Part shown: positions 3,063-27,859 of the stretch, in pieces
How positions within the stretch are numbered: position 1 is the first letter of the stretch
Layout: each line of letters begins with the position of its first letter
Source of the DNA: Phycisphaera mikurensis NBRC 102666
Lineage (GTDB): Bacteria; Planctomycetota; Phycisphaerae; Phycisphaerales; Phycisphaeraceae
Length of the DNA stretch: 32,000 bases
Assembly (NCBI RefSeq): GCF_000284115.1
Contig: NC_017080.1
Span: 1,260,001-1,292,000 of the forward strand
Direction: 5' to 3'
Notes under the pieces: model-generated
Database searches by the model: none
What the model was told of the DNA's origin: nothing
The model's input: the letters and a program-made list of their open reading frames with translations, nothing else
Position numbers and translations under genes: made by a program

Positions 3063-3293
3063 ATGCTGGTCGCATTCTCCAACCGGCTCGGATGCGGCGG
3101 CTCGCTGCTGGTCAGCCTCGTGGGCTCCATCGTGCTGATCGTCGCGATGCTCGGCCTCAACGCCTGCTTCACCCGCGGCGCCCCGCTGGTGGTCCCCGGT
3201 CCCGACGCCCCGGCATCGGTGGGCGAGGCGGTCGGCGGGACCGAGGCTTCGGCCACGCCGCGGACCGCCGCGGAAAGGGAGGCGTCGGGCTGA
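3063..3293 (+). CDS. Possible small lipoprotein or membrane peptide (76 aa)
   Basis: High GC3. The N-terminus has a hydrophobic segment ending in a lipobox-like LNAC (LVSLVGSIVLIVAMLGLNAC). Its last ~12 codons and its stop codon lie inside palindromic element copy A, so the 3' end, or the whole ORF, may be fortuitous. Confidence 0.3.
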   Translation: MLVAFSNRLGCGGSLLVSLVGSIVLIVAMLGLNACFTRGAPLVVPGPDAPASVGEAVGGTEASATPRTAAEREASG

Positions 3294-3303
3294 CGGTCCG
3301 CGG
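3258..3303. repeat. Palindromic element copy A (CCGCGGACCG-N26-CGGTCCGCGG), between convergent gene ends
   Basis: Perfect 10-nt inverted arms at 3258-3267 and 3294-3303. The right arm plus flank TGACGGTCCGCGGATCCG (3291-3308) is identical to 10701-10718. Confidence 0.85.
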
Positions 3304-3314
3304 ATCCGGACGAT

Positions 3315-4049
3315 TCAGAAGCCGAACAAGTCGGCGGCGGTGGCGGCGTCGAGCGCATCGGCCGGGGTGTCCGCCTCGCCCGGGAGCGCTTCCGCGAGGT
3401 CCGGCATGAGGGCCGCCGGATCGAGCCCGTGCGCGCGGAGCAGCAGCAGCGGGTCGCGGTCGATCAGCACGGCCAGCCCGAGCATCGTGCATAGGAGGTG
3501 CTTGCACGCGGAGTCGCCGTCGAGGCAGTCGCAGCTGGTGGCGACGCCGCGCCTCTGCGGCAGCAGCGGGCAAGCGGGTTCGGACAGGGCCGCCTCCACC
3601 GCGGCGGGCAGTTGGCCGGCGGCGAGAGCGGACGCGTCGGCGGGGGTCAGCTGCGCCCGCAGCGACGCCACGGCGTTTCTCCACCACCGCTTCGGCGGCG
3701 GCTTCAGCCGGAACGCCGTCTCGTACGTCTCCAAGCCGTAGACGCGCCCGTCGGCCCCGCCGCCCTCGCGGGCGGTGGTCGCCCGCGCGTCGCCGTCCTT
3801 CACCTGCAGGTCGACCAGGCAGTGGTGGCGGAGGTAGCCCTTTGCCTTGGTCGCCCGCGACGCGCTGCCGGCGTAGCGGAGCGACGCCTCGAAGAAGGCG
3901 GTGCCCAGGAGCGTGCGCGTCTGCTGGCGGCCCTCCGCCGCGACGGGCCGGATCGCGCCCCACCGCTTCGGCGGCTTGGCGATGAGCTCCAGCGCCTCCT
4001 CCTTCAGCTCGCCCAGCGGCTTGCTCGGGCCGGAGTCGTACCAGCTCAT
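3315..4049 (-). CDS. SWIM zinc-finger domain protein (partner of the SNF2 helicase)
   Basis: 244 aa. It carries a CxC-x7-CxH SWIM signature (SCDCLDGDSACKHLLC). Its ATG overlaps the SNF2 stop as ATGA (4046-4049). Confidence 0.8.
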   Translation of the reverse strand: MSWYDSGPSKPLGELKEEALELIAKPPKRWGAIRPVAAEGRQQTRTLLGTAFFEASLRYAGSASRATKAKGYLRHHCLVDLQVKDGDARATTAREGGGADGRVYGLETYETAFRLKPPPKRWWRNAVASLRAQLTPADASALAAGQLPAAVEAALSEPACPLLPQRRGVATSCDCLDGDSACKHLLCTMLGLAVLIDRDPLLLLRAHGLDPAALMPDLAEALPGEADTPADALDAATAADLFGF

Positions 4050-6412
4050 CCGAAGGCGTCCAGATCGAGGCGGACCAGGTTCAGCAGCGCGTCGTCATCG
4101 AGTTCGGTGAGCTTCAGCTCGCCGGTGTCTCCTTCGCCCGGGAGCACCGCCCCGGCGAGCGCCCGCTTGTCTTCGATCATGGCGTCGATCTTCTCCTCGA
4201 TGGTGCCGCGGGTGATCATCGTGTGCACGAAGACGTTGCGCTTCTGGCCGATGCGGAAGGCCCGGTCGGTCGCCTGGTCCTCGACGGCGGGGTTCCACCA
4301 GCGGTCGAAGTGAACGACCTGCGCGGCGGCCGTGAGGTTCAAGCCCACGCCGGCGGCCTTGAGCGAGAGCACGAGGCTCGGTGGGCCGTCCTCCGCCTGG
4401 AAGCGGGCGACGATCTTCTTCCGCTTGGCCACCGGGACGCCGCCGTGGATCGCGTCGCCGCGGCGGCCGAAGACATCCGCGAGCAGGTTCCGCAGCGGGT
4501 CGATCACCTCGCGGAACTGCGTAAACACCAGCACCCGCTCGTCGGCCTCGGCGAGCCGCTCGGCGAGCTCGACCAGGCGCCTCATCTTCCCGGACTGCCG
4601 CGGCTCGTAGCCGCCCTCGCCGGTGAGCTGGTCGGGGTGGTTGCAGCACTGCTTCAGCCGCGTGAGCGTCTGCACGACCAGGCCCTTCCGGCGGATGTCG
4701 TCGGCCCCGTCGAGCTGCTCGGCGAGCCGGTCGACAGTGGCCTCGTAGAGCTTCACCTGCTTCGGCGTCAGCTCGCACCAGGTTCTGGTGACGGTCTTGT
4801 CGGGTAGATCCGAGATCACCGACTTGTCGGTCTTGCTCCGCCGGAGCAGGTAAGGCTGCACCAACCCGCGGATCCGGCCGTACCTCGCGGAGCCCCGGTC
4901 GGGTTCCTCCGACCCATCGGCTTCGGATCCGCGGACCGTCGCCTCTTTGAGGCCATCTCCGCCACGGTCCGCGGATTCGCGGTCGAGCCGCGCGAGCAGC
5001 TTCTTGAAGCCCACCCGCGAGCCGAGCAGCCCGGGGTTCAGGAAGTCGAACAGCGACCACAGGTCCGACAGGCGGTTCTCCACCGGCGTGCCGGTCATCG
5101 CGATCCGCGCCGGCGCCGGGATCTTCTTGACCGCGCGTGCCTGCTTCGTTGCGGGGTTCTTGATCGCCTGCGCCTCGTCGAGGATGACGCGGCTCCACGG
5201 GCACAGCGCGAGCCAGTCCAGCCGGCCCGCCATGGCGTAGGTGGTGACGACGAGGTCGCGCCCGCGGAAGGCCTTCGCCGGCGTTCTCCCGCGGGCCGCC
5301 GCCTCGGCCCGCTCCAGGCGGTCGCCCCCGGAGGTGCCCGGGTGGAGCAGCTCGACCGCGAGGTCGGGCGTGAACCTTTTGGCTTCCTCCTCCCAGTTGT
5401 GCAGGAGGCTCGCCGGCACGACCAGCAGGCTCGGCGGCCGCGGGCCTTCTTCCTTGTCGGCGCGCAACGCCGCGAGCACCTGCAGCGTCTTGCCCAGGCC
5501 CATGTCGTCGGCGAGGCAGGCGCCCAGCCCGAGCCCGCCGAGGAAGCGGAGCCAGGCGACGCCCTCTTGCTGATACGGCCGCAGCGTCGCGCGCAGGCCC
5601 GGGATGCTCGCGGGTTGCAGCCGCGCCGGGTCGCGCAGCCGGGCCGCGGTCTCGCGGAAGGCGCCGCCGGCGGTGGCGTGCAGCCAGGGCTCGCCGTCCC
5701 CGTCCAACGCCTCTTCTGTAGCGCCCGCCGAGCCGCCGAGCATCCGCATCGCCGCGAGCAGCGTCACGCCGTCGAGATTCTGCCGGCTCAGCGCGTGCAG
5801 CCGGGCGATCGCCTGCCGGAGCTGCTCCGCGTCCACCGCCGCCCAGCGACCCTTGAGCAGCACGAGCGTCTCGCCGGTCGCGTCGTCGTCCATCAGCCCG
5901 TCGGCTTCCTCGGCCGAGAGCGTCGCATCACCCAGGGCGAGGGCGGCGTGGAAGTCCAGCAGCGCCTCCGCCCCGACACGCGAAGCCGTGCCGCCGATCT
6001 TCACGTCCACCTTCGGCTTCGCCCGCTTCTTCCACCAGTCCGGCAGCCTCGCCTCCAGGCCGGCGTCCCGCATCTCCGGGACGCCCCGCAGGAACGCCGT
6101 CGCCATCGCGACGTCGAACCGCAGCGGGTGGTAGACGTGCCTGCTCGCGACGAGCTCCCGCAGCCAGGGCAGCCGCTCGCCCGCCGCGTGCAGGGGCGCC
6201 AGCAGCCCGGCCAGGCCCGCCGCGTCGCCCGCCTCCGCCCGCTCCCGCGCGGCCGCGAGCAGGCGCTGGCGCCCGGTCCGGCCGCTTCCTTCCCTCGTCT
6301 CCACGCTCGCGAGGAACGCGAACGGCCGCTCCGCGTCGTCGGGATTCTCGACCAGGCGGAGGACGACCCGCACCGCTTGAGCTTCCCCGCGTTGTCGACG
6401 CTGACCCGTCAC
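4046..6412 (-). CDS. SNF2/RapA-family DEAD-like helicase (HelZ-like)
   Basis: Motif I LADDMGLGKTLQ, motif II ILDEAQAIKN, motif III MTGTPVENRL, and C-terminal lobe motifs VLVFTQF, SLKAAGVGLNLT and QATDRAFRIGQKR. I trimmed track ORF 4046..6796 to the in-frame GTG at 6412, which overlaps the stop of the upstream membrane-protein gene as GTGA. Sequence upstream of 6412 is better explained by the other frame. Confidence 0.9.
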   Translation of the reverse strand: MTGQRRQRGEAQAVRVVLRLVENPDDAERPFAFLASVETREGSGRTGRQRLLAAARERAEAGDAAGLAGLLAPLHAAGERLPWLRELVASRHVYHPLRFDVAMATAFLRGVPEMRDAGLEARLPDWWKKRAKPKVDVKIGGTASRVGAEALLDFHAALALGDATLSAEEADGLMDDDATGETLVLLKGRWAAVDAEQLRQAIARLHALSRQNLDGVTLLAAMRMLGGSAGATEEALDGDGEPWLHATAGGAFRETAARLRDPARLQPASIPGLRATLRPYQQEGVAWLRFLGGLGLGACLADDMGLGKTLQVLAALRADKEEGPRPPSLLVVPASLLHNWEEEAKRFTPDLAVELLHPGTSGGDRLERAEAAARGRTPAKAFRGRDLVVTTYAMAGRLDWLALCPWSRVILDEAQAIKNPATKQARAVKKIPAPARIAMTGTPVENRLSDLWSLFDFLNPGLLGSRVGFKKLLARLDRESADRGGDGLKEATVRGSEADGSEEPDRGSARYGRIRGLVQPYLLRRSKTDKSVISDLPDKTVTRTWCELTPKQVKLYEATVDRLAEQLDGADDIRRKGLVVQTLTRLKQCCNHPDQLTGEGGYEPRQSGKMRRLVELAERLAEADERVLVFTQFREVIDPLRNLLADVFGRRGDAIHGGVPVAKRKKIVARFQAEDGPPSLVLSLKAAGVGLNLTAAAQVVHFDRWWNPAVEDQATDRAFRIGQKRNVFVHTMITRGTIEEKIDAMIEDKRALAGAVLPGEGDTGELKLTELDDDALLNLVRLDLDAFG
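4929..4974. repeat. Palindromic element copy B, inside the SNF2 CDS
   Basis: Perfect arms at 4929-4938 and 4965-4974. The extended left arm CGGATCCGCGGACCGTC (4924-4940) is the reverse complement of the copy A and copy C right arms. Confidence 0.85.
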
Positions 6413-7263: not shown

Positions 7264-9849
7264 TCACTTTACCCGCGGCCGGTGCCGATCCGCCGCCGCC
7301 TCCAGCTCCGCCGCCATCCGCGTGATCCGCTCCTCCCAGGTTTGGCTGCTCTGGTGCTGCTCGCGCAGCCGCTCGGCGAAGAGCGGGAAGCCCAGCGGGG
7401 TGAGCCGGTCGGGGCAGACGCAGACGATCTCGTCGGCGGCGAGGCTTTCCAAAGACGCGCGCAGGCGGGCGACCTCCAGCTGCCGCTCGAGCACCTCGCG
7501 CTTCGCCTGGGTGAGCAGCAGGTTGTCGGGGTCGAAGTCGGTGAAGACGTCGAAGAACAGTTCGCTGCTCGCCTGCAGGTGCTTGGTCGCCCGGTTCTCG
7601 CCGGGGTAGCCGGTCTGGATCAGGCCGGCGATCCGCGCGATGTCGCGGAACTGGCGGCGGGCCAGCTGGCCGGTGTCGACGCAGGCGAGGAGGTCCTCGA
7701 GCAGGTTCTCCGGCGAGAGCACCTCCGCCCAGAAGCCGACCTCGTGCGGCAGCGGGTCGTCGGTGAGCACCTCCACGCCGTAGTCGTTTACCGTCACCAC
7801 CACCGTCAGCGGCATCGCCCGCGTGAGCCGCAGCGCGAGCAGCGCCCCGAGCCCCTCATGCACGAGCCGGCCCAGCAGCGGGAAGAGGAAGTGGTGGTGG
7901 CCGTCGCGCGTGCGGACCTTCTCGATGAGCAGCTCGCCGGACCGCGGGATGCGCGACCAGTCCTCCTGCAGGCGGAGCAGCGGCTCGATCGCCCGCATCT
8001 CGGCGTTGTCGTAGACGCCGGCCACCGCGGCGTCGAGCCGGCGCCGCACCGCCGCGGCGAGCTGCGTGGACAGCGGGCTGCGGCCGCCGGCCCAGCGCGG
8101 CACGTTCCCGCGCGAGCCGCTCGCTCGTTTCACCTTCGCGACCATCTGCCGCACGCTCACCAGCTGCACGAGGTGGCCGGCGAAGACGAAGCGGTCGCCG
8201 GGCTTGAGGAAGCCGACGAAGTTCTCCTCGACCGTGCCCAGCCGCTTGGATCCCATCAGCACCGAGATCATCGCGTTGCTGGTGATCGTGCCGATGCCCA
8301 TGCGGTGGTCGCGGGCGACCTTCTGGCCCCCGACGCCGTAGAAGCCGGGCCGGTCCGGGTCCTCCACCACCCGCTCGAAACGCGGGTACGCCCGCAGGCT
8401 CTCGCCGCCGCGGACGACGAAGTCCAGGCACCAGCCGAACTCCTCGTCGGTGAGGTGGCGGTAGGACCAGGCGGTCCGCAGCTCCTCTTTCATCGCTTCG
8501 GCGTCGAAGCCGCCGCCGGCGGCCACCGTCACCAGGTGCTGCACCGCGACGTCCAGCGGGCGATCCAGCGGCACGCGGCTCTCGATCTCGCGGGCGTTTC
8601 CCGCGTCCCGCGCGGCCGCGAAGTCCAGCACCTCCAGCGCGTTGGTCGGCACGCCGATGATGCGCGACTTGACGCCCGGCTGGTGCCCGCTGCGGCCGGC
8701 CCGCTGCAGCATCCGCGCCACGCCCTTGGGGCTCGCGACCTGGATCACCTGCTCCACCGGCGAGAAATCGACGCCGAGGTCCAGCGAGCTGGTGCAGACG
8801 CAGACCTTCAGCTCGCCCGAGCGGAGCATCTCCTCCACCGCGTTCCGCGTCTCGCGGTCGATGGAGCCGTGGTGCAGCGCAACCTTCCCGAGCCACTGCG
8901 GCCTCGCCTCGCAGATCCGCGCGTACCAGATCTCGCTCTGGCTGCGGGTGTTGGTGAACAGCAGCGTCGAGGCCGCGGGCTCCAGCGCGTCCAGCACCGC
9001 GTCGAGCAGCACGATGCCCAGGTGGCCCGACCAGGGGAAGCGGTTCGCGACGCCGTCGCCGACTTCCCCTTTGCTCCCGCCGGGCAGAAGCGTCGTCAGC
9101 TCGAAGCCCGCGTCCTCGGGCCCCGCCAAGCGGCAGCCCTCGCGGGCTCGGCGGGTCGGCGGGTCGACGCCGAGCAGGCAGTCCTTCGCCTCTCCGAGAT
9201 TGCCCAGCGTTGCCGACAGCCCCCAGGTCTGCACGGCGGGGTTGAAGGTGCGGAGCCGCGCGAGGCCCAGCTCGGTCTGCGTGCCCCGCTTGGTCGAGAG
9301 CAGCTCGTGCCACTCGTCGACGACGATCGTCTCGAGCCCGCGGAAGGCTTCCTCCGCGTTGGCGTACGACAGCAGCACCGACAGCGACTCGGGCGTGGTG
9401 ACCAGGCACGTGGGCAGCTTCTTCCGCTGCTTCTGCCGCAGGGCCTGCGGCGTGTCGCTCGTTCGTTCCTGCACCGTCCAGGGCAGGCCGAGCGCCTCGA
9501 CCGGCCGCCTGAGGTTCTCGCGCGTGTCCACCGCGAGCGCACGCAGCGGCGTGATCCACAGCACGCGCGGGCCGACGGGGTCCATCGACGCCCAGGCGTC
9601 GCGGTCGGGGTGCTGCTGGATCCAGCGCAGCAGCGGACCGCCCCACACCGACAACGTCTTGCCCGTGCCCGTGGGCGCGTGGATCAGCCCCGACGCGCCG
9701 GCAAGCTGCCGCTCCCAAGCCTCCTTCTGGAAGGCCGCCGGCTCGCCCAGCGCCCCGCGGAACCAATCGAGGAAGGGCGATCCGGGCGGCGGCACGGGGA
9801 AGGTTAGGAGCAGGCCGGGTGAACCGGGACCACGCACCCGCAGACGCAC
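7264..9849 (-). CDS. Ligase-associated DEXH-box helicase (Lhr-core-like)
   Basis: Motif I IHAPTGTGKT, motif II VVDEWHEL, GLSATLGN, motif VI MLQRAGRSGH, plus a long Lhr-type C-terminal region. It sits directly downstream of the ATP-dependent ligase. The start is uncertain: GTG at 9849, or a later in-frame GTG near 9795 just before PFLDWF. Confidence 0.9.
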   Translation of the reverse strand: MRLRVRGPGSPGLLLTFPVPPPGSPFLDWFRGALGEPAAFQKEAWERQLAGASGLIHAPTGTGKTLSVWGGPLLRWIQQHPDRDAWASMDPVGPRVLWITPLRALAVDTRENLRRPVEALGLPWTVQERTSDTPQALRQKQRKKLPTCLVTTPESLSVLLSYANAEEAFRGLETIVVDEWHELLSTKRGTQTELGLARLRTFNPAVQTWGLSATLGNLGEAKDCLLGVDPPTRRAREGCRLAGPEDAGFELTTLLPGGSKGEVGDGVANRFPWSGHLGIVLLDAVLDALEPAASTLLFTNTRSQSEIWYARICEARPQWLGKVALHHGSIDRETRNAVEEMLRSGELKVCVCTSSLDLGVDFSPVEQVIQVASPKGVARMLQRAGRSGHQPGVKSRIIGVPTNALEVLDFAAARDAGNAREIESRVPLDRPLDVAVQHLVTVAAGGGFDAEAMKEELRTAWSYRHLTDEEFGWCLDFVVRGGESLRAYPRFERVVEDPDRPGFYGVGGQKVARDHRMGIGTITSNAMISVLMGSKRLGTVEENFVGFLKPGDRFVFAGHLVQLVSVRQMVAKVKRASGSRGNVPRWAGGRSPLSTQLAAAVRRRLDAAVAGVYDNAEMRAIEPLLRLQEDWSRIPRSGELLIEKVRTRDGHHHFLFPLLGRLVHEGLGALLALRLTRAMPLTVVVTVNDYGVEVLTDDPLPHEVGFWAEVLSPENLLEDLLACVDTGQLARRQFRDIARIAGLIQTGYPGENRATKHLQASSELFFDVFTDFDPDNLLLTQAKREVLERQLEVARLRASLESLAADEIVCVCPDRLTPLGFPLFAERLREQHQSSQTWEERITRMAAELEAAADRHRPRVK

Positions 9850-9889
9850 GCTTGGAGCTGGCCCGCCGCGCCGCCGGCCCGGCGCGCTT

Positions 9890-11635
9890 CTAGATCAAGC
9901 CGCGGAGAAAACCGACGGTGTCGGCTTCGTCGGCGCGCTTGTCGTCGCGGATGCGGGCCATCCGCGGGAAGCGGAGCGCGAGGCCGCTTCGGTGCCGCTT
10001 GCTCTCCTGCACGCCGTCGAAGGCGATTTCGAAGACGCGGCTGGGCTCGACCTCGCAGAAGGCGCCGCGGCCGCCGCGCCGGTGGCCCTTGATGAAGGCA
10101 TCGACCCGCGCGAACTCCGCGTCGGTGAGCCCCGAGTAGGCCTTCGTGACCGGAACCAGCTCGCCCCGGCCGGGTTGCTCGCCCGTCCAGAGCGCGAAGG
10201 TGTAGTCGGTGTAGAGCGTCGAGCGCCGGCCCGTGCCACGCTGGGCGTAGATCATGACGGCGTCGATCGCGTAAGGGTCGACCTTCCACTTCCACCACAG
10301 CCCGCGCTCGTCGCCGCTCTCCCGGGTCATGGCACGGCCGATCCCGTAAGGGGCGTCGCGACGCTTGAGCATGAAGCCCTCGACGTTGCGGGCCCGGCTC
10401 GACGCGCGGAGCGCACCCAGCGAATCCCAGGATCCGCCCTCGACGGCCGGGGAGAGGAGCAGCTTGCCGCCGGAAGCGTGGAACGCGTCGGCGGCGAGGG
10501 CCTCCAGCGCGGCGCGCCGCTGGTGGGTCGGCTCCGTGCGCAGGTCCGCGCCGCCGAGCTCGAGCACGTCGTAGGCCATGAAGACGACGGGGCGGTCCTC
10601 GAAGAGCGCGGGGTGGCGGGCTCTGCGGTTCAGCCGGCGCTGGAGGACCGCGAAGGGCTCCGGCAACCCGCGGACCGTCGGCGTTTGGAGCTCGAAAGCG
10701 TGACGGTCCGCGGATCCGTCCGCGTTCCGCCACGCGAGGATCTCGCCGTCGAGCACGGTGCCTTCGGGGAGCGTGGACGCCGCCGCGGCGACCTCGGGGA
10801 AGGTGCCGGTGATGAGCTCCTCGCCGCGGGACCACAGCCGGGCGCTGCCGCCGCGGCGGAGGAGCTGGCAGCGGATCCCGTCCCACTTCCACTCGACGCT
10901 CCAGTCGCTGCGGTCGCCGAGCTTCTCCCGGGGCGTCGCCTGGAGCTGCTGAGCGAGGCAGAAGGGGTAGGGGCGCGCCGCGTCGTCGGCCGCGGCGTCG
11001 GCGTCGGCGCCGCCGCCGCTGCCGCCGCTGCCGGCCGCTTGGCCGCCCGGCCGATCCGGTGCGGTCACCCGCTCCCACGCCGAGCGTGTGGGCGAGAAGC
11101 CGCCGGTCATGCGGTGCTGCATCACCGCCGCCGGCACGCCGGTGGCTTCGGCGAGGGCGTTGATGACGACCTTCTTCGCGGCCCCGAAGCGGAAGTTCCC
11201 GGAGATCAGCTTGTGGAACACGAGCCGCTGGGTCGCGTCGAGCCGGTTCCACGTCGCGAGGATCGCGGTCCGCTGCTGCCCCTCGCTCATGCGTTCGAGC
11301 GGGAGCACGCGCGTCTCGATGATCGAGGTCAGCGACTCGTCCTCGCCGGCCGCGGTCGGCGGCGGCAGCAGCAGCGACAGCGTCTCGGACAGGTCGCCGA
11401 CCACCGAGTGCGACTCGGCGATCAACCACGCCGGGAGCCCCGTGGCCTCGCCGCAGAAGGCCCGCAGCCGGTTGTACGGGACGCGCCGGATCAGCGACGT
11501 CCCGGTCAGCACCGCGAGCGCCCAGGCCGCGTCGTCGGCGTCCGCTTCGCGGAAGTAGGCCGCGATCGCCGCCGTCTTCTCGCTCGTCCGCGTGGTGCGG
11601 TCGACGGCGGTGAAGAGGGCGGTGAACGACTTCAA
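9890..11635 (-). CDS. ATP-dependent DNA ligase (ligase-associated damage-response type)
   Basis: Adenylation motif I VEWKWDGIR, plus LDGEILAW, VFMAYDVLE, EGFMLKRRDAPY and WWKWKVDP. N-terminal DNA-binding-domain-like start (M)KSFTALFTAVDRTTRTSEKTAAIAAYF, with TTG as the start codon at 11635. Confidence 0.9.
   Translation of the reverse strand: MKSFTALFTAVDRTTRTSEKTAAIAAYFREADADDAAWALAVLTGTSLIRRVPYNRLRAFCGEATGLPAWLIAESHSVVGDLSETLSLLLPPPTAAGEDESLTSIIETRVLPLERMSEGQQRTAILATWNRLDATQRLVFHKLISGNFRFGAAKKVVINALAEATGVPAAVMQHRMTGGFSPTRSAWERVTAPDRPGGQAAGSGGSGGGADADAAADDAARPYPFCLAQQLQATPREKLGDRSDWSVEWKWDGIRCQLLRRGGSARLWSRGEELITGTFPEVAAAASTLPEGTVLDGEILAWRNADGSADRHAFELQTPTVRGLPEPFAVLQRRLNRRARHPALFEDRPVVFMAYDVLELGGADLRTEPTHQRRAALEALAADAFHASGGKLLLSPAVEGGSWDSLGALRASSRARNVEGFMLKRRDAPYGIGRAMTRESGDERGLWWKWKVDPYAIDAVMIYAQRGTGRRSTLYTDYTFALWTGEQPGRGELVPVTKAYSGLTDAEFARVDAFIKGHRRGGRGAFCEVEPSRVFEIAFDGVQESKRHRSGLALRFPRMARIRDDKRADEADTVGFLRGLI
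10668..10713. repeat. Palindromic element copy C, inside the ligase CDS
   Basis: Perfect 12-nt arms, CCGCGGACCGTC (10668-10679) and GACGGTCCGCGG (10702-10713). The 20-mer CCCGCGGACCGTCGGCGTTT (10667-10686) is identical to 27813-27832 in an intergenic region. Confidence 0.9.
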
Positions 11636-11713
11636 AGCGGAAGGACGCTACGCCCCGTGGCGACTCCGAATGGCCTCGCGGCCGGATGCACCGCCGCCCC
11701 CGGGCGGGCCGCG

Positions 11714-12007
11714 TCAGCGCATCATCCACCTGGCGTCGCTCACGAGGCCCACGCCGCCGTACTTCTTCAGCACCGGCGCGAGAAGCTCGCCGAGCTTCTC
11801 CGCCTTCGCCTCGTCGCAGGCGCAGAGGATCAGGCAGTTCTCGAACGCGCCGGTGATCCCGTCGGGGTGGCGGTCGCCGCGGTCGCCCCAGCCCGAAGCG
11901 TTGCGGAGGACCGTGTAGCCGTTGACGCCGGCGGCGAGCAGGACCCCCACGACGCGGTCGACGTGGTGGCTGTCGACGACGAGCTCGATGCGTTTGACGT
12001 TCTTCAT
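11714..12007 (-). CDS. P-II-like small regulatory protein (SbtB-like)
   Basis: 97 aa reading MKNVKRIELVVDSHHVDRVVGVLLAAGVNGYTVLRNASGWG..., a PII-like beta-alpha-beta layout. It lies 10 nt downstream of an SbtA-family permease, which is the usual pairing. Confidence 0.65.
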   Translation of the reverse strand: MKNVKRIELVVDSHHVDRVVGVLLAAGVNGYTVLRNASGWGDRGDRHPDGITGAFENCLILCACDEAKAEKLGELLAPVLKKYGGVGLVSDARWMMR

Positions 12008-12017
12008 GGCGGGCCGC

Positions 12018-13073
12018 TCAGGTCCAGATCGCGTCGATCGCCGCCATGTACAGCGGGATCCCGACGGTGATGTTGAAGGGGAAGGTGACCGCCAGCGACA
12101 TCGTCACGTAGATGCCCGGGTTGGCCTCGGGCACGGCCAGCCGCATCGCGGCGGGCACCGCAATGTAGCTCGCGCTACCCGCCAGCGTCGCCAGCAGGAG
12201 GGCATCGCCCTGGCCGGCGCCGAGCAGCCAAGCCGCGGCGATCCCCAGCGAGGCGTGGGCCGGGGCGCTCAGGACGGCGAAGGCGATCAGCGAGCCCCCG
12301 GCCCTCCTCAGGTCGCCCAACCGGCGGGCGGCGACGAGGCCCATGTCCAGCAGGAACAGGCACAGCACGCCCTTGAAGGGCGCGTACGCGAAGGGCTTGA
12401 TCGACTCCCATCCCCGGTCGCCGATGGCCAGGCCGATGAGCAGCGAGCCGACGAGCACGACGACGGCGCCGTTGAGGAACGCCTCGCGGAAGAGCTCGCC
12501 CCAGTCGACGTCCCGGAACCCGCCGGCGTCGCCGGCTCCGTGCCCGGCGAGTCCGGGCCGCTGCTCGTCTCCCGCCGCCGGGGTCCCCTCGGAGGAGGGG
12601 GCGTACCAGCGCGCGAGCAGCACGCCGACCACGATGGCGGGGCTCTCCATCAGCGCCATCGCGGCGACCATGTAGCCCCCGGGCGTGTAAGCCGGGTCGG
12701 AGGAGGCGAGCGTGGTCAGGAAGTTGTTGGCGGTGATGAAGGTGACCGCGGAGATCGATCCGTAGGTGGCCGCCATGGCCGCGGCGTTGGCGGCGTCGAG
12801 CTTCAGGCGGAGCACGAAGAAGGACCACACCGGGACGATCGCCGCGAGCACGACGGCGGCGAGCAGGAGGCCGATGACCCGCGCCCCGAGGTCGCTGTGC
12901 ATCAGCTCGACGCCGCCGTGAAGGCCGATGGCCATCAACAGGTAGATCGACAGCAGCTTGGGGATCGGCTGCGGGAGGGAGAGGTCGCTCCTGCAGACCG
13001 CGGCCAGCACGCCGAGCGCGAAGAAGAGGATCGCGGGCGTGCGGAGGTTGTCGACGAGCAGGCTGAGGTCCAT
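12018..13073 (-). CDS. sbtA: SbtA-family (DUF897) sodium-dependent bicarbonate-transporter-like permease
   Basis: Polytopic membrane protein with two hydrophobic halves separated by a Gly/Asp/Ala-rich cytoplasmic loop. Start MDLSLLVDNLRTPAILFFALG and end SASYIAVPAAMRLAVPEANPGIYVTMSLAVTFPFN match my memory of SbtA. I trimmed the track ORF (to 13232) to the ATG at 13073. Confidence 0.75.
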   Translation of the reverse strand: MDLSLLVDNLRTPAILFFALGVLAAVCRSDLSLPQPIPKLLSIYLLMAIGLHGGVELMHSDLGARVIGLLLAAVVLAAIVPVWSFFVLRLKLDAANAAAMAATYGSISAVTFITANNFLTTLASSDPAYTPGGYMVAAMALMESPAIVVGVLLARWYAPSSEGTPAAGDEQRPGLAGHGAGDAGGFRDVDWGELFREAFLNGAVVVLVGSLLIGLAIGDRGWESIKPFAYAPFKGVLCLFLLDMGLVAARRLGDLRRAGGSLIAFAVLSAPAHASLGIAAAWLLGAGQGDALLLATLAGSASYIAVPAAMRLAVPEANPGIYVTMSLAVTFPFNITVGIPLYMAAIDAIWT

Positions 13074-13335
13074 GCGGGGCGGACGGTAACCGGCGGCGGA
13101 AGCTCGCGATGCCGCGATCGACCACACGCCCCGCGCCGCAATCGACCCGCCGAAGCGGAGCGGGGGGGCCGTGGCTCGCAGGCGGCCCGGAGGATTTTCC
13201 GGCCATCGCACGCCTCCGGATCCCGGTGCCACGCACGCGCAGGCGCGATCTTCGGCACGTCTTCCGGAGCGGCCGATGCCCGGGTGCCACGCGGCTCGCG
13301 GGTGAGGTGTCCGCGGGACGCGCGGCCGGCTCCGC

Positions 13336-14454
13336 TCAGTTGAAGAGCCCGCCCTGCGGATCTTCCCCGGGCTCTTCCGCGGCTTGGTCGGGGTGCGTCT
13401 TCATCGCGATGTCGTTCCCGGTGACGGTCCCGTCCTCGTCGCCGGTCCAGCGGGTGGGCACCACGTCGGCGTCGAGGCTGCGCACCTCGCGGAGGTAGCG
13501 GACAACCGCCTCGCTGCTGCCGTGCGTGACGCCGATGGAGCCGGCGCCGGTCGCTTCGATCGCCCGCATCAGCCCCGGCCAGTCCGCGTGATCGGAGACG
13601 ACGAAGCCGCGGTCGACGCCGCGGCGGCGGCGGTTGCCGCGCACCATCATCCAGCCGCTGGCGAAGCTGGTGGAGAAGGGCGCCCAACGCTTCAGCCAGG
13701 CGGTGCCTAGCACCGACGGCGGCGCCACGAGCAGGGCTTTGCCTCTGTGCTGTTTCGCCAGATCCGGCGTCGCCCGCCGCACGGGCGGGAGCCTGACGCC
13801 GGCGGCCCGGTAGACCTCCACGAAGCTCTCGACGCTGCCGTGGACGAAGATCGTCGCTTCCTCATCGGCCGCCTCGGCCTCCAACAGCATCGAGAGCACG
13901 CGCTGCGCCTTGCCCAGCGCGTACGCGAAGACGACGGAGGTGCGGGAGAGCGCGCGGTTCTCCGACCACCACGCCGCGAGGTCGGCGGCGACGCCGTCGC
14001 TCTCGGGCCAGCGGTAGATGGGCAGGCCGAAGGTCGACTCGGTGACGAAGCGGTGGCAGGGCACCGGCTCGAAGGCGTCGCAGGTGGGGTCGGCGGCGAC
14101 CTTGTAGTCCCCGGAGATCACCTCGACGCGGCCGCGGTGCTCCACGCGCACCTGGCCGGAGCCCAGCAGGTGCCCGGCGGGGTGCAGCGAGACGGTGACG
14201 CCGTTGAGGCTCGTCGTCCGGCCCCAGGGCAGCCCCTCGATGGGGGCGTCCGGCTGCACGCGCCGGGCGAGCACGGGCTCGCCGGCGGCGCTGGTGAGGT
14301 AGCGGGAGCAGCCGGCGGTGGCGTGGTCGCTGTGGGCGTGGGTGACGACCGCGCGGTCGACCGGCTTCCACGGGTCGATGTGGAAGCCGCCGGCGTGGCA
14401 GTACAGCCCCGACGGTCCGGCGACGACGAGCGGGATCTCGGGCGGACGCGGCAC
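13336..14454 (-). CDS. Ligase-associated metallo-beta-lactamase-fold exonuclease
   Basis: GLYCHAGGFHIDPW...AVVTHAHSDH (HxHxDH motif), then LHPAGHLLGS and VISGDYK. I trimmed the track ORF (to 14706) to the in-frame GTG at 14454, 8 nt after the upstream gene stop. The longer version would overlap the DUF1772-like gene. Confidence 0.8.
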   Translation of the reverse strand: MPRPPEIPLVVAGPSGLYCHAGGFHIDPWKPVDRAVVTHAHSDHATAGCSRYLTSAAGEPVLARRVQPDAPIEGLPWGRTTSLNGVTVSLHPAGHLLGSGQVRVEHRGRVEVISGDYKVAADPTCDAFEPVPCHRFVTESTFGLPIYRWPESDGVAADLAAWWSENRALSRTSVVFAYALGKAQRVLSMLLEAEAADEEATIFVHGSVESFVEVYRAAGVRLPPVRRATPDLAKQHRGKALLVAPPSVLGTAWLKRWAPFSTSFASGWMMVRGNRRRRGVDRGFVVSDHADWPGLMRAIEATGAGSIGVTHGSSEAVVRYLREVRSLDADVVPTRWTGDEDGTVTGNDIAMKTHPDQAAEEPGEDPQGGLFN

Positions 14455-14462
14455 GGGGGGTT

Positions 14463-14912
14463 CTACGCGGTGAGGGCGGTCACGATCGCGGCGGCCGCGA
14501 GCACGCCATGCGCGGTCCAGGCGGCCGTGCGGATCCAGTTCGTCGTCACCAGCGAGCGGGCGGCACCGGCGTCGAAGCCCCGGGCGAGCACGCGGTGCCT
14601 GGGGATCTGCAGGAGGGCGGTGCTGGCCCAGTTGATCGCGACGGTGGCGAGGCCGAGCCACGGAATCCAGGGCGGCACGCCCGGCGGCGGGCTCAGGCAC
14701 AGCCACACCGTGGCCCCCAGCTCGACCGCCATCAGCGGGCCGACGACCGGCCCGGTCCGGGCGATGTGCTGCGCCTGGTAGCCGAGGTACGCGTCGGCCG
14801 GCACCCGCGCGTGCGCCGGGTAGTGCACGCGCTGCACGAACCAGATGAGGCCGACCATGCCCCAGACCGAGCCGGCGTACGCGGCGAGGACCAGCGCGTC
14901 CGCGGCGCTCAC
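14463..14912 (-). CDS. DUF1772-like four-helix membrane protein
   Basis: C-terminal 149 aa of track ORF 14463..15377. It has hydrophobic helices plus LLQIPRHRVL...TTNWIRTAAWTAHG, resembling the DUF1772 NxPxN...W-x-R pattern. The GTG at 14912 overlaps the SRPBCC gene stop as GTGA. Confidence 0.55.
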   Translation of the reverse strand: MSAADALVLAAYAGSVWGMVGLIWFVQRVHYPAHARVPADAYLGYQAQHIARTGPVVGPLMAVELGATVWLCLSPPPGVPPWIPWLGLATVAINWASTALLQIPRHRVLARGFDAGAARSLVTTNWIRTAAWTAHGVLAAAAIVTALTA

Positions 14913-15427
14913 GCTCGGCCCGGCCCTTCCGCCAGGCGCGGCGCCGGATCGCCGCCGCTGGCGTAGAGCCCGGCCAGCACGCGGTGCCGGTTCTCGAAGA
15001 GCTTGGTGAGGTCGCGCCGCACGACCGCGTTCGCGAGCCCCGCGAGCGGCCCGCCCGGCGGCCGGTAGATCACGCGGTCCCGCGTCAGCGTCCCGCCGCT
15101 GCGGGGCAGGTACGTGTGCTCGTGCCGGAAGCGGGCGTAGGGCCCGCGCTCCTGCTCGTCGGCGAAGAAGCGGGGGGCGTCGACCTCCTCGATCCGCGTC
15201 GTCCACGAAAGCGGGAGGCCGTGCAGCCTGAGCCTGTAGCGGTAGCGCACGCCGGTCGCCAGCGGCTCGATCCGCGGGTCGACCACGTGGAACCGGATCC
15301 ACGCGGGCAGCACGAAGTTCATGTGCCGGCAATCGGTGACGAACGGCCAGAGCTTCTCGGGCGACGCGGGCAGCCACTGCTCGGCGAGCAGGAGGAAGTC
15401 GTTCTGGCGGCGGCCGGTGGCGATCAT
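14909..15427 (-). CDS. SRPBCC (START/cyclase-dehydrase-like) family protein
   Basis: 172 aa. LPASPEKLWPFVTDCRHMNFVLPAW...RYRYRLRLHGLPLSWTTRIEEVDAPRFFADEQERGPYARFRHEHTY is typical of the SRPBCC ligand-binding fold. Confidence 0.7.
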   Translation of the reverse strand: MIATGRRQNDFLLLAEQWLPASPEKLWPFVTDCRHMNFVLPAWIRFHVVDPRIEPLATGVRYRYRLRLHGLPLSWTTRIEEVDAPRFFADEQERGPYARFRHEHTYLPRSGGTLTRDRVIYRPPGGPLAGLANAVVRRDLTKLFENRHRVLAGLYASGGDPAPRLAEGPGRA

Positions 15428-15530
15428 GACAAGTGGGTGGCGGCTGCGCCGACCGCTCCGTGCTGGCGGGCTGATTCCGAGCTCCCGGCCTCGCTCCCTC
15501 TCTCGCCCGGACCGCCCCCCGGCGGCCCGC

Positions 15531-15962
15531 TCAGGTCGGCACGCTGGTCCGCACCGGCCCGCCGCCCCATCCGCCGGACCGCCCGCGCTCCCGGTGCGCG
15601 TTCCAGCTCGCCCAGAGGATGAGCCCGAAAGGGACCCACCAGATGAGGTCGTTCGTCGGGATCGTCCAGCCGAAGGCGGGGTCGAGGGTGCCCCGGACGA
15701 AGGCTCCGTCCGCGTAGCCGATCGGGCCGGCGATCTTGCCCAGCAGGCCGACCAGCGTGATCGGCCAGTGCTTCAGCGGGGCCGTCGCGGCGCAGGCGTA
15801 GCCGATGCCGTAGACGCCGACGATCATGCCGACGCACTGCCAGATGGCCGGCTGCGTGGGCCGGTCCATCCCGACGAGGTCGAAGAAGTGGTTCGGGAAC
15901 AGGACCACCCAGGCGCCCCAGGCGAGGTTGTAGGCCGCCGCGAGCAGCAGCACGATGGACAT
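15531..15962 (-). CDS. Hypothetical integral membrane protein (about 4 TM)
   Basis: Trimmed to the internal ATG at 15962 (MSIVLLLAAAYNLAWGAWVVLFP...). Hydrophobic helices and high GC3. No family recognised. Confidence 0.5.
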   Translation of the reverse strand: MSIVLLLAAAYNLAWGAWVVLFPNHFFDLVGMDRPTQPAIWQCVGMIVGVYGIGYACAATAPLKHWPITLVGLLGKIAGPIGYADGAFVRGTLDPAFGWTIPTNDLIWWVPFGLILWASWNAHRERGRSGGWGGGPVRTSVPT

Positions 15963-16085
15963 CCAAGGCTTTGCTGCGCGAGAGGATTGACGCAAGGTGG
16001 AAGGCTTCGGCGGGCGGAGCCCGCCGGCGCGGGTCCGCATTGTGTCTGGGTGAACCGCGGCGCCGGGCAGCGGCGTCCGGAGACG

Positions 16086-16131
16086 CCGCGGACCGTAGGC
16101 CGCTTGCGCCTCCCGGGGCGGCGATCCGCGG
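16086..16131. repeat. Palindromic element copy F (19/20 arm match), 5' of tatD
   Basis: Left arm CCGCGGACCG at 16086-16095 and right arm CGATCCGCGG at 16122-16131, with the same 36-nt offset. A separate perfect 7-bp hairpin, CGGCGTC-cgga-GACGCCG, lies at 16071-16088. Confidence 0.65.
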
Positions 16132-16174
16132 GTTCCCGGGCGGCCCGGGCCCGCCGCGGGGCTACAACCTCGCC

Positions 16175-16960
16175 ATGATCGACACCCACTGCCACCTCAC
16201 CTATCCCGGCATCGCCGAGCGTGTCGGCGACGTGGTGGCGGACGCTCGAGCGGCGGGCGTGGACCGGATGGTCTCGATCGGCACGGGGCCGGCGGACTCG
16301 GTCGCGGCCATCCAGGTCGCCCGCCGCTTCCCCGGCGTCGTGTTCGCCACGGCGGGCATCCACCCGCTGCACGCCGGCGAGGTCGGGGACGTCGCCGCCG
16401 CGACCGCGGAGCTGCGGCTGCTCTCGGTCGCCGAGGAGGTGGTGGCGCTCGGGGAGATGGGGCTCGACGCGCACCACGACCGGCCGCCGATGGCGGTGCA
16501 GCGGGCCGCCTTCGCGGCGCAGCTGACTCTCGCGGAAGAGACCGCCTTGCCGGTGGTGATCCACAGCCGCGAGGCGATCCCCGAGACGATCGAGATGATC
16601 CGGGCGACGGGCCTCCCCGCGGACCGCTTCCTCTTCCACTGCTTCAGCGGGACGGTCCGCGACCTCGACGCGATCCTCGCTTTTGGCGCGGGGATTGGTT
16701 TCACGGGCATCGTCACCTTCCCCGGCGCGGCGGCGGTCGCCGAAGCGAGCGACCGCGTGCCCCTCGACCGGCTCTTCCTCGAGACCGACAGCCCGTACCT
16801 CACGCCCGCCCCGCACCGCAAGGTGCGCATCAACGAGCCGAAGTACGTGCCGCGGGTCGCCGCGCTGCTCGCCGGGCGGCGGGGATTGGCGGTGGAGGCG
16901 CTGGCGGCGGCGTGCGACCGCAACGCAAGCCGCTTCTACGGCCTGCCCGAGCCGGCTTGA
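16175..16960 (+). CDS. tatD: TatD-family metal-dependent hydrolase/DNase
   Basis: MIDTHCHLTYP, GEMGLDAHH, VVIHSREA, FHCFSGT and LETDSPYLTP motifs. I trimmed track ORF 15971..16960 to the ATG at 16175. Confidence 0.9.
   Translation: MIDTHCHLTYPGIAERVGDVVADARAAGVDRMVSIGTGPADSVAAIQVARRFPGVVFATAGIHPLHAGEVGDVAAATAELRLLSVAEEVVALGEMGLDAHHDRPPMAVQRAAFAAQLTLAEETALPVVIHSREAIPETIEMIRATGLPADRFLFHCFSGTVRDLDAILAFGAGIGFTGIVTFPGAAAVAEASDRVPLDRLFLETDSPYLTPAPHRKVRINEPKYVPRVAALLAGRRGLAVEALAAACDRNASRFYGLPEPA
16617..16662. repeat. Element-like site T (19/20 arm match) inside tatD; status ambiguous
   Basis: CCGCGGACCG at 16617-16626 and CGGTCCGCGA at 16653-16662, with the same 36-nt offset. The spacer encodes the native conserved TatD FLFHCFSG segment. 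Confidence 0.4.
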
Positions 16961-16979
16961 TCCGCGCAGCGTGCCGCGG

Positions 16980-19900
16980 TCACTGCATGCGGAGGATCTC
17001 CGCCTGCCGGTCCCGCCAGGCGCTCTTGCTGGGCTCGAGGTCGATCGCCACCTCGATTGTCCGCAGCGCCTCCTGCACGTTCCCGTTGGCGACCTGCGCC
17101 AGCGCGAGCGTGTCGCGGAAGTCGGCGTTCTCGGGCTCGGCGGCGACGGCTTCCCGGGCGAGCTGCAGGCCGGCGGCGGCGTCGATCGCCGGCCCGTCGT
17201 CGCCGATGAGCACCATGGCCAGGTTGTTCCGCACGGCCTGCGCGTCGGGGTTGAGGTCCAGGGCCCGGCGGTAGGCGGCAACGGCGGTCTGCGGCTCCCC
17301 GAGCGACTCGGCCATCATGCCGGCGGCCGCGTGGACGGGCATCGTCGCGTCGGGCCGCTCGGCCAGCGCGGTCACCAGCCGCAGCGCGACGCGGCCGGCG
17401 TCGGGGGCGTCGCGAGCGGTGACCCCGCCGGCGAGGTGCAGAGCCCACCAGGCGTTGGCGACCCGGAACCGCTCGGAGGGTTCGCTCTCGGGCACGGCGG
17501 CGGTGAGCGTCTCCAGCCAGGCGGAGCGCGCGTCGGCGTCCCGCAGCGAGGGCGTGATGGCCAGTGCGGCGGCACGCCACTGGGGCAGGTCCAGGTGCCC
17601 GCCGAGGAAGTCCGTCGCCTCGCGCGCCCGGCCCGACTCGGCCAGGGCGCGGCCGTAGACCGCGGCGAAATCGGCCATCTGCCCGGGCAGCTCCTCCGCG
17701 AACCTGAGGTAGGGGGCCAACGCGGCCTCGGCCTCGGCGGGCTGCCCCTTGGCGAGGCGGCTGCGGGCGATGAGCAGGTCGGCCGCGAGCGGGTCGCGGG
17801 CGGAGCGACGCCGCCAGTCCATCGCGGAGGCGAGCGCGTCGTCCCACCGCTCCAACGCGAAGAAGGCCAGCGCCCGCGCCTGCGCCGGCGGCACGGCGTT
17901 GGGGTGGGCGATCGCCGCGGCCTCGGCCAGCGCCAGGGCCTCCTCGTTGCGGCCGGCCCGCAGGTGCAGCTGCGCCGCGAGGGTCTGCAGCTCGACGATC
18001 CCGTCGGCGTCGCGGGCCATCTGCCGCAGGCGGGAGAGCTTCTCCACCGGCGGCGCCGCGGTGTCCGCCGCGAGCGTCAACGCCGCGGAGATGGAGGCGC
18101 GGAGGCCGGGGTCGCTCTCGCGGAGCAGGCGCTGCAGGATCGGGCGGAAGGCCGGGTCGCCCGCAAGCGCCCCGACGGCGTCGGCCCGCGCCACCAGGTC
18201 CGCGAGGCCGGGCTCTTCGCCCGCCGCGCCGCCGGCGAGGCCGGCCCGGGCGGCGTCGAGCGCGGCCTCGCCGCGTCCCTGGCCAAGGTTGAAGCCGGCG
18301 AGCCGCGAGGCGGCGCCGGGGTCGCCGGCGGCGACGGCGGCCTCGAACTCCGCGAGCGCTTCGCGCAGCGAGCCGTACCGGGCGGCGTGGTCGGCGAGGA
18401 TCGCGCGGCGGCGGCCGGGCTCGACCCCCGCGCCCTCGAGCCGGTCCAGCACGGCCTGCGCCCGCTCCGGGTCGCCGCTCTCGGCGTAGAAGCCCGCGGC
18501 CCACTGCAGCGACGCGGCGTCGGGCTCGGCGGCGAGCAGCGCCTCCATCGTGCGGGACGCGGCGTCTTCTTGGCCGACCTGGGCGTACAGCTGGCCGAGC
18601 AGCAGCTGCTCGCGCGCCCCCATGGCTCCCTCCGGCCGGTTCTGCAGCCGCTCCAGCAGGCCGATCGCGCGGGCGTAGTCGCCCTGGGCGGCGAGCAGCA
18701 GCGCGGCCGAGCGGGTCTGTGCCGCGTCGAGCCGGTCGGCGGGGCCGTCGGCCACGGCGACGAGATTCGCCAAAGCGGCGGGGAAGTTGCCCACCGCCTG
18801 CTGCAGCCGGGCCACCTCCAGGCGGAGCGAGGGGCTGTCGGACGCCTGCTGCAGCGCGGCTTCGGCGTCGCGCGCAGCTTCCAGCGTGCGGCCCTGCCGC
18901 TCGTGGGCCCGGGCCCGCAGGAGCAGGGCCTCCGCGTCGTCGCGGGCGCGGCTGAGCACCTCGTCGAGGAGCTTCTCGGCCTCCGCCGCGGCCGCGTCAT
19001 CGGCCGGGCTTCCGCCCGCCCCGGCCCCCGCCTCGGCCCCGGGCCCGTCGAGCAGCCACCGCGCGCGGGCCATCCGCCACTGCAGGTTCTCGCTGCCCGC
19101 GAGCGAGCGGACCCGCTCGATGACGCGGTCGCTCAGCTCCCGGTCGGCGAGCACCAGCGGCGACGCGAGCACCCGACGCTGCACCTCCAGCACCGAGGGG
19201 AAAGCCTCCGAGGTGGCGGCCCAGGCCTCGCGTGCGCCGGGGTCGTCGATGAGCTGGAGGTAGGTGGCCTCGAGCAGGCGCCAGGAGGGGTCGTCGGCGA
19301 CGACCCGCGGGCGGATGAGCGCCAAGCCGGCGTCGGGCTGCCCCTCGGCGGCGAGCCGCGCGGCGCGGGCGTAGATCAGCTCGGGCCGATCGCCGTAGGC
19401 CTCGTTGAGCCGATCCAGCACGAGCGTGTCGGTGTCGAGGCCGGCGGCTTGGCCGACGCGGGCCAGCTCCAGCAGGCTCGCCGGCGGCAGCGGCGGGTCG
19501 CGGCGGACCGCCCGCTCGATCGCGGCCCGGGCGGCTTGGTCGTCCCCGCGTTGGGCGAGCGTGGCGGCCTCGAGCACCACCAGCCGCGGCTCGTCGGGCA
19601 CCTGCTCGAGCAGCTTCGCGGTGAGGTCCAGCGTCTGCTGCTCCCGGCCCGGCAGCCGGGCCATCGCCTCGGCCTTGAGCACCAGCGGCTCGAGCAGGTC
19701 GGTGCGGCGGAGGTACGCCCCGGTCGCCTCGGCCTCGGCCTCGGCCGGGCGATCGAGCTCGAGCAGGGCTCGCGCGGCGAGCACGCGCGGGGCGGCCCAG
19801 GCGTTGCGGGCTTCGGCGGCGGCGCGGTGCTGGGTCAGCGCCGCGGCGAAGTCGTCGACCTCGGCGTGGCAGCGGCCCATGATGGCGAGCAGGTAGGGGT

Positions 19901-22909: not shown

Positions 22910-22955
22910 CCGCGGACCGCCGCGCTGCGGGCCGCTGCGGCGCGACGGTCCGCGG
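22910..22955. repeat. Palindromic element copy D, in the divergent exosortase/ileS intergenic region
   Basis: Perfect arms at 22910-22919 and 22946-22955. Two extra CCGCGG sites lie nearby, at about 22885 and 22968. Confidence 0.85.
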
Positions 22956-27813: not shown

Positions 27814-27859
27814 CCGCGGACCGTCGGCGTTTCCGGCTCCGATCGGCCGCGGTCCGCGG
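27814..27859. repeat. Palindromic element copy E, between convergent gene ends
   Basis: Perfect arms at 27814-27823 and 27850-27859. It shares a 20-mer with copy C. A 9-bp tandem array follows immediately. Confidence 0.85.

Follow-up and report, generated by a model that had tools for sequence, protein, structure and literature searches.

How does a perfect palindrome come to be read in frame through the gene of a DNA ligase? This question is raised by a 32,000-nt stretch of the Phycisphaera mikurensis NBRC 102666 genome (positions 1260001-1292000 of contig C1 in the assembly that we denote G000; the whole stretch is hereafter called the window). The gene for an ATP-dependent DNA ligase in this window (9890..11635, minus strand, 581 aa) contains a two-armed palindrome of 46 bp (10668..10713). 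The sequence-only reading of the window had interpreted the palindrome as part of a lineage-specific in-frame insertion, analogous to the palindromic elements of Rickettsia. We propose another explanation. The ligase palindrome is probably one of the copies of a DNA motif that is specific to this lineage, is maintained by selection, has a putative reader, and is tolerated in a permissive loop of the enzyme. The family to which it belongs is probably not a jumping element.

The palindrome itself had been described correctly, and its arms, coordinates and reading frame were all verified. The left arm CCGCGGACCGTC (10668..10679, plus strand) and the right arm GACGGTCCGCGG (10702..10713, plus strand) are complementary at 12 of 12 positions and enclose a 22-nt spacer (10680..10701) that encodes residues H312-P319 of the ligase. 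On the coding strand, the enclosing 48 nt (10667..10714, minus) run from TCC to GGG and make up exactly 16 codons (TCC GCG GAC CGT ... ACG GTC CGC GGG). These codons, which specify S308-G323 (SADRHAFELQTPTVRG), are open in frame throughout and are placed between the motif III segment LDGEILAW and the segment PFAVLQRR; the open reading frame (ORF) across the palindrome is ...LDGEILAWRNADGSADRHAFELQTPTVRGLPEPFAVLQRR....

The ligase copy belongs to a large family. The host genome (3.88 Mb, 73% G+C, with an 81-kb plasmid, 99.97% complete) contains 480 exact copies, and about 750 copies in all, of the motif CCGCGGACCG-N26-CGGTCCGCGG, the two cores being the first 10 nt of the left ligase arm and the last 10 nt of the right one. 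The offset between the arms is exactly 36 nt. At this offset 480 pairs match all 20 arm bases, 165 carry one mismatch, and 81 carry two, as compared with only 0-9 exact 10+10 pairs at neighbouring offsets. A reversed-pattern control gave no matches, as opposed to 503 for the true pattern, and the two controls together rule out a chance palindrome. The family is restricted in its range: not a single copy was found in 40 genomes that belong to other genera of its family and order, while the genus itself has no second genome in the collection searched. No published description of the motif family was found in the literature searched. An 8-mer scan of the same genome also revealed other inverted-repeat families, namely GGGGTGGC-N25 (34 copies), GCGTCGCC-N39 (51 copies), and ATGAGCCA-N10 (21 copies).

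The interiors of the copies are almost all different (501 variants among 503 copies), and each interior position, those of the spacer included, carries 0.05-0.7 bit of information. At all 13 mirror pairs of interior positions, Watson-Crick pairs are exactly as common as multiplying the column frequencies predicts, and mutual information is confined to neighbouring positions. The mean number of complementary interior pairs per copy is 4.81 of 13, compared with 4.82 in shuffled combinations of halves. The folding energy is -30.9 kcal/mol for the true interiors and -29.5 kcal/mol for shuffled ones, a shift of 1.4 of 31 kcal/mol. A hairpin with a structured interior was rejected, as covariation and a sub-family with a palindromic interior are both absent and the gain in folding energy is small. 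The sequence-only reading had also noticed a partial palindrome centred on GAGCTC in the ligase spacer; because interior complementarity in the family equals the shuffled expectation, this feature is no more than chance.

The arms are weakly prolonged to CCGCGGACCG-CGG, and each arm therefore constitutes most of a 13-nt palindrome CCGCGG-W-CCGCGG, the centres of the two palindromes being 33 bp apart. Full 13-nt arms are seen in 42 copies of the genome (e.g., C1:26704). A T-run is favoured approximately 10 nt inward of the central A in each half, and the halves are uncoupled. The arm variants ATCG and ACGG are matched by a complementary change in 10 of 38 cases, which is the chance level, and the commonest variant is C-to-T, found in 58 of the 165 copies with a single change. 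By an estimate from composition, solo arms are only about twice as numerous as expected by chance. The dinucleotides flanking a copy are CG or AT, each side independently of the other. No target-site duplication was detected, as direct repeats (1-8 nt) on the two sides of a copy occur at about the expected number (e.g., 99 observed vs 80 expected for 2 nt). The orientation of the interior relative to transcription has a weak bias (57%, p 0.047) that is absent inside genes. In this genome, the arms behave as independent half-sites, not as the two strands of a stem.

The origin of individual copies was approached by comparing ten other gene-embedded copies with orthologues or solved structures. 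Over 120 residues, the C-terminus of UreC shows no gap in the alignment with solved ureases, the copy lying on homologous residues, and the alignment of NasA, a nitrate-reductase-type enzyme, is likewise gap-free across the copy. When set against five relatives that lack the motif family, TrpE, RsmJ, and a MoeB/ThiF-like protein are free of indels at the copy and have homologous interiors. The GlpK copy is associated only with a small indel of 3-4 additional residues. In QueG, KdtA, an HtpX-like protease, and RarA, the copies fall in stretches whose length varies among all relatives and is not increased in P. mikurensis. Thus, a 16-residue insertion accompanies none of the ten copies, and in several of them the arms have forced amino-acid changes in existing residues. 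In the MoeB/ThiF-like host (G000:C1:1315118), VPEH is found just upstream of the copy where relatives have the Cys-rich residues CPCC, CRCC, or VCS, and this local change may reach beyond the arms. The family contains no donor copy for the ligase interior, whose best match is 18 of 26 positions, below the family median. Near-identical interiors are few and occur only in larger duplicated genes or regions.

In the ligase, the 16 residues do coincide with a difference in length. The whole expanded loop (R303-P327, 25 aa; 10655..10729, minus strand) extends from the motif III strand to PFAVLQRR. The sequence-only reading had expected a short loop at this place in the ligase family, and this holds: of 120 homologues, 85 have a loop of 7 aa between W302 and F328 and 14 have one of 9 aa, compared with 22-25 aa in the Phycisphaera clade. 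The segment is missing from nine of ten orthologues of family- and order-level relatives, the alignment with an archaeal ligase of solved structure (4eq5) has a gap of 17 residues at the loop, and distant orthologues have no homologous counterpart of the 16 residues. Judged from these alignments, the segment is a lineage-specific indel. In the AlphaFold2 model, the region consists of a strand (293-303), a coil, a short strand (324-325), and a helix (328-335); the predicted local distance difference test (pLDDT) score of the loop is low, about 52 for residues 311-320 and <50 at 311-313. The surface loop that had been expected is thus confirmed as far as prediction goes. As for presence or absence in sister lineages, three metagenomic ligases of 79-81% identity (P0002-P0004) all share the segment, other genera mostly lack it, and the collections searched yielded no ligase of 62%-79% identity.

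The claim of a lineage-specific in-frame insertion therefore divides into two parts. The indel is demonstrated, but it does not in itself prove that the palindrome delivered the segment, and the properties of the family speak against such delivery. The same loop has become longer independently, by 3-22 residues, in about 13 homologues outside the clade; these are P0012, P0021 (the G011 ligase, locus L003), P0023, and about ten others, and they represent several planctomycete lineages. The loop of G011, the sole expanded lineage examined at the DNA level, has no inverted repeat of at least 8 nt. A relic of the element in this loop was considered and rejected, as the weak arm-like matches have the wrong spacing and were judged to be due to chance.

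The distribution of copies was analyzed with gene calls from a home-made codon-usage caller (2973 genes, 85% coding). On the chromosome, copies follow each other at a mean distance of 5.3 kb (median 4.6 kb), with a coefficient of variation of 0.69 as against 1.00 for random placement (minimum 0.90 in 1000 trials); there are too few gaps both below 2 kb and above 12 kb. Copies are approximately tenfold denser between genes than within them, at about 0.8 per kb in convergent and tandem intergenic regions, 0.5 in divergent ones, and 0.08 in coding DNA. In tandem intergenic regions they tend to lie nearer the upstream stop codon (173 of 250), a modest preference for gene 3' ends. The share of copies inside genes, as measured on 726 copies with these gene calls, is 18% under a strict test, which demands that both flanks carry a coding signal in one and the same frame, and 38% under a lax one. 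Among 129 clearly embedded copies, 128 are open in frame and one has a stop. Embedded copies are found in poorly conserved stretches and use the three frames in the ratio 96:24:8; the favoured frame, xADR...xVRG, needs only G/C-ending codons and common residues, whereas the rare frame requires GGA and GGT. The 81-kb plasmid C2 (GC 0.70) has 3 copies instead of about 15 expected, and the largest copy-free stretch (G000:C1:56112-85186, 29 kb) has the lowest GC content of the chromosome (0.685). A general dependence of copy density on local GC was rejected (rho -0.01 overall), the depletion being limited to the lowest-GC island and the plasmid. One of the plasmid copies lies within a paralogue of a chromosomal gene that carries a near-identical copy.

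The window contains six further copies of the same geometry, which illustrate these contexts. Two are read in frame within coding sequences (CDSs): the copy at 4929..4974 in the CDS 4046-6373 (minus strand), as SADRGGDGLKEATVRG, and the copy at 16617..16662, with one mismatch, in the CDS 16175-16960 (plus strand), as PADRFLFHCFSGTVRD. Two others, at 16086..16131 (one arm being the variant ATCG) and at 22910..22955, are intergenic between divergent genes. The copy at 27814..27859 is located between convergent genes, and that at 3258..3303 overlaps the end of a small predicted ORF.

The DNA of the three related ligases comes from the samples ERZ25070591, ERZ27264536, and SRR26831623. Together with P. 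mikurensis they form four roughly equidistant lineages with about 80% nucleotide identity, in which four-fold degenerate sites are 56-60% identical and synonymous sites are therefore nearly saturated. Against this background, the arms TCCGCGGACCGT ... ACGGTCCGCGG are identical in G000, L017, and L019. The codons of the ligase interior vary synonymously (GCT/GCA, TTC/TTT, CTC/CTG), with the peptide x-A-F-x-L-x-T-P being kept. Nine degenerate codons are identical in the three lineages, for which the gene-wide rate gives P ~1.3e-3. The 19-nt run at the right arm is the fifth longest identical run in the ligase gene; other long runs include the catalytic motifs EGFML and WWKWKVDP. Further canonical copies are found close by in both L017 and L019. 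In a metagenome scan, exact copies turned up on 53 contigs, and many of these contigs are 75-90% identical to regions of the P. mikurensis genome. At 12 alignable orthologous sites, the P. mikurensis arms are 97.9% identical, compared with 74.6% for the interiors and 80% for the flanks. By these comparisons of sequence, the arms and their spacing are kept at the DNA level, either by purifying selection or by continual restoration.

The following scenario can be suggested. The motif consists of two inverted arms CCGCGGACCG(CGG), with their centres about 33-36 bp apart and an arbitrary 26-bp interior. The arms may act as two independent half-sites for a putative symmetric sequence-specific DNA-binding factor, possibly a dimer of dimers bound on one helical face; this reader may be of the chromosome-organising or of the DNA-uptake type. 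New copies would result mostly from point changes on existing sequence, and not from transposition. The ligase copy would occupy a hypervariable surface hairpin loop after motif III that had room for it. Compared with other genera, the loop has 15-18 additional residues, and its expansion probably predates the split of the four related lineages. The gain of arms by a permissive, already variable loop fits the preference of the family for poorly conserved stretches, and the ligase presumably merely tolerates the 16 residues.

A bolder version of this scenario, which we regard as possible but put forward only tentatively, is that the arms are actively written onto existing DNA, including conserved parts of the genes for urease, nitrate reductase, and anthranilate synthase, and that a putative protein reads two 13-bp half-sites three helical turns apart. 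Directed writing of this kind would be either sequence-biased uptake with recombination or motif-templated conversion. If it were true, the motif would represent an evenly spaced, chromosome-wide bipartite signal of a kind not described in any bacterium. Already under the scenario of a maintained motif, twenty specified bases at a fixed spacing would have been selected about 750 times in one genome, by selection that overrides synonymous drift and alters amino acids in conserved enzymes. Such strong selection would imply a reader with a genome-wide role in chromosome organisation, in DNA uptake or self-recognition, or in repair. Little is known about the chromosome biology of Planctomycetota.

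Several observations weigh against the explanation by a maintained, protein-read motif. First, the loop of P0003 is composed of DE, the 16 element residues, and LPEP, that is, of a 6-residue loop plus exactly 48 nt, and this composition matches the expectation for a clean 48-bp insertion. Second, the metagenomic copies at orthologous sites were picked for their perfect arms, and only the P. mikurensis side of the comparison of arms, interiors, and flanks is unbiased. Third, because copies favour intergenic DNA, their even spacing may partly mirror operon lengths. Fourth, the ligase site of L018 (encoding P0002; L018:1390-1437, ENA ERZ27264536 k141_101951, orthologous to window positions 10667-10714) has the arms CCCGCGGGCGGC ... 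GCCGCCCGCGGG, which form another perfect 12/12 palindrome. They differ from those of the other lineages by three fully compensatory pairs, with no one-sided change, and this speaks for base pairing, or for correction templated by a hairpin, rather than for two protein half-sites that act independently. Compensation in L018 conflicts with the chance level of compensation observed genome-wide in P. mikurensis. A separate family with the L018 variant arms was looked for in 185,579 GTDB species genomes; the 110 single matches, scattered over unrelated high-GC taxa, are at chance level and uninformative.

Among the alternatives, the one that survives best, although we consider it unlikely, is a small mobile palindromic element similar to those of Rickettsia or to MITEs (miniature transposable elements with inverted repeats), which would have inserted 48 bp in frame in the ancestor of the clade and been kept since. 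It would account for the 15-18 aa by which the ligase loop exceeds that of all family-level orthologues and of the solved archaeal ligase, for the normal-length loop DE-LPEP that is left when the 16 codons of P0003 are removed, and for the near absence of stops in the frames used (one of 129 embedded copies). The properties of the family as a whole argue against it. Interiors are unique, the ligase interior has no relative elsewhere, and near-identical interiors are restricted to larger duplications. Neither a target-site duplication nor coordinated flanks accompany the copies. None of the ten other embedded copies added 16 residues to its host, and the ligase loop has expanded in homologues outside the clade, without a palindrome in the lineage examined at the DNA level. 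For these reasons the analogy with the Rickettsia elements, as drawn in the sequence-only reading, is not supported by the family.

A second alternative, in our view improbable to a somewhat greater degree, retains a DNA-level reader and is a special case of it: a motif similar to DNA uptake signals, accumulating by molecular drive (biased uptake and recombination) wherever it is tolerated. Copies made in place, a choice of frame led by codons, poorly conserved sites, and scarcity in recently acquired DNA all match what is described for uptake signals (PMC2817400), and the T-run lies about one helical turn from the core in each half. P. mikurensis encodes ComEC, DprA, and a ComEA-like HHH protein. 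These competence genes say little, because they are also found in 10-11 of 14 control genomes, and the 20 specified bases in two parts far exceed the known signals of 9-12 nt. We know of no demonstration of natural transformation in the group of Phycisphaera and, to our knowledge, neither uptake bias nor competence is known for P. mikurensis. A 981-aa frame with a ComEC domain (C1:277931-278761) itself holds an in-frame copy with two mismatches, at G000:C1:279360 (HADRVAAEPRTPAVRG).

Still less probable is a hairpin of the type of repetitive extragenic palindromes (REPs) and the mobile REP doublets (REPINs), spread and maintained by a REP-associated tyrosine transposase (RAYT, a Y1 transposase) and acting as single-stranded DNA or RNA. 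Palindromic GC-rich arms, the tenfold enrichment between genes, the modest preference for gene 3' ends, two PF01797 (Y1_Tnp) homologues in the genome, and the three compensatory pairs of L018 would agree with it. The approximately 750 copies show neither stem covariation nor excess compensation, a strictly fixed "loop" of 26 nt is unexpected for a hairpin, and 18-38% of copies are intragenic, several of them on conserved residues. The Y1 genes are unflanked, with the nearest copies at 6-8 kb for one gene and at 0.7 kb on one side only for the other. Biased very-short-patch repair is one explanation discussed for palindromes of the type of the highly iterated palindrome HIP1. As a by-product of such repair, tied to cytosine-5 methylation of CCGCGG or CGGWCCG, the Phycisphaera motif is hardly credible: both palindromes are contained in each arm and C-to-T is the commonest variant, but such a bias cannot account for the fixed offset of 36 nt between the arms, solo arms exceed the chance number only about twofold, and the virtually complete genome has no match to the PF00145 cytosine-5 methyltransferases, N4 and N6 methyltransferases being outside this search.

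The host gene does not appear to have suffered from the extra loop. The ligase is of the ligase-associated DNA damage response type (TIGR04120 / PRK09247), scoring 608 bits against NF006701 (cut-off 543) and 561 against TIGR04120 (cut-off 400). KxDG and the other nucleotidyltransferase motif residues are invariant in the 120 homologues, and the AlphaFold2 model has a pLDDT of 90.4 and a predicted template modelling score (pTM) of 0.84. The neighbouring ligase-associated DEXH-box helicase (TIGR04121, 7264..9849, minus strand, start codon uncertain) scores 980 against a cut-off of 850, and the operon context is intact. Thus, the ligase gene looks intact, and the extra loop looks like a tolerated surface feature. 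A second lineage-specific insert is present in the ligase at window positions 10961-11059 (minus strand; residues ~193-225). It is a low-complexity segment rich in Gly, Ala, and Asp that is longer in P. mikurensis than in the three close relatives, is absent from other genera, and has low model confidence. In L017 (positions 8606-18524, ERZ25070591), about 5.7 kb separate the ligase gene from that of an Lhr-type helicase, whereas the two are adjacent in P. mikurensis; the intervening DNA encodes a rhamnosidase, hydrolases, and a Fic-domain protein, the gene of the latter lying beside a weak match to a FitA-like ribbon-helix-helix (RHH) protein. For annotation, the ligase provides a caution: an intragenic palindrome together with an extra loop is in itself no proof of the insertion of a mobile element.

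Comparison with known systems helps to place the motif. Rickettsia palindromic elements, reviewed with other intragenic MITEs in PMC10969869, are the obvious reference, as they too are lineage-specific palindromic repeats read in frame in unrelated housekeeping genes, where they form a tolerated surface peptide. These elements have a length of about 150 bp, make up families conserved over the full length together with the encoded peptide, and are insertions relative to orthologues. By contrast, conservation in the Phycisphaera motif is limited to 2 x 10 nt and their spacing, the interiors are arbitrary, and most of the copies tested are not insertions. Like the motif, REPs and REPINs are short palindromes rich in GC that number in the hundreds, lie mostly between genes, and are specific to a lineage and conserved among closely related species. 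They differ in that REPs are extragenic hairpins with compensated stems and a conserved 5' tetranucleotide, accompanied by REP-flanked RAYT genes, whereas the Phycisphaera motif has no stem compensation, a fixed spacer, many intragenic copies, and Y1 genes without flanking copies.

Two other systems are closer. The uptake signal sequences (USS) of Pasteurellaceae and the DNA uptake sequences (DUS) of Neisseriaceae (PMC2817400, PMC1939737) likewise comprise hundreds to thousands of copies made in place, coding DNA included, with a frame bias following codon preference and a tendency to fall on poorly conserved residues; they are rare in recently acquired DNA and common to close relatives. Known USS and DUS are single motifs of 9-12 nt, whereas the Phycisphaera motif is a palindrome in two parts, in which 20 bases are specified and the spacing is fixed. 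The cyanobacterial HIP1 (GCGATCGC; PMC5861425, PMC4390886) is a hyper-abundant palindrome as well, conserved within and between ORFs across species, spaced non-randomly along the chromosome, and maintained by selection. It is a single 8-mer with cognate methyltransferases that occurs about once per gene; the Phycisphaera motif is a 46-bp two-armed unit found every ~5 kb in a genome in which no cytosine-5 methyltransferase was found by the PF00145 search. By analogy, the motif in its combined features comes closest to what is described for DNA uptake sequences within coding DNA (PMC2817400) and for HIP1 (PMC5861425), and the palindrome of the Phycisphaera ligase is best filed, with its family, in the class of iterated, selection-maintained genomic motifs.

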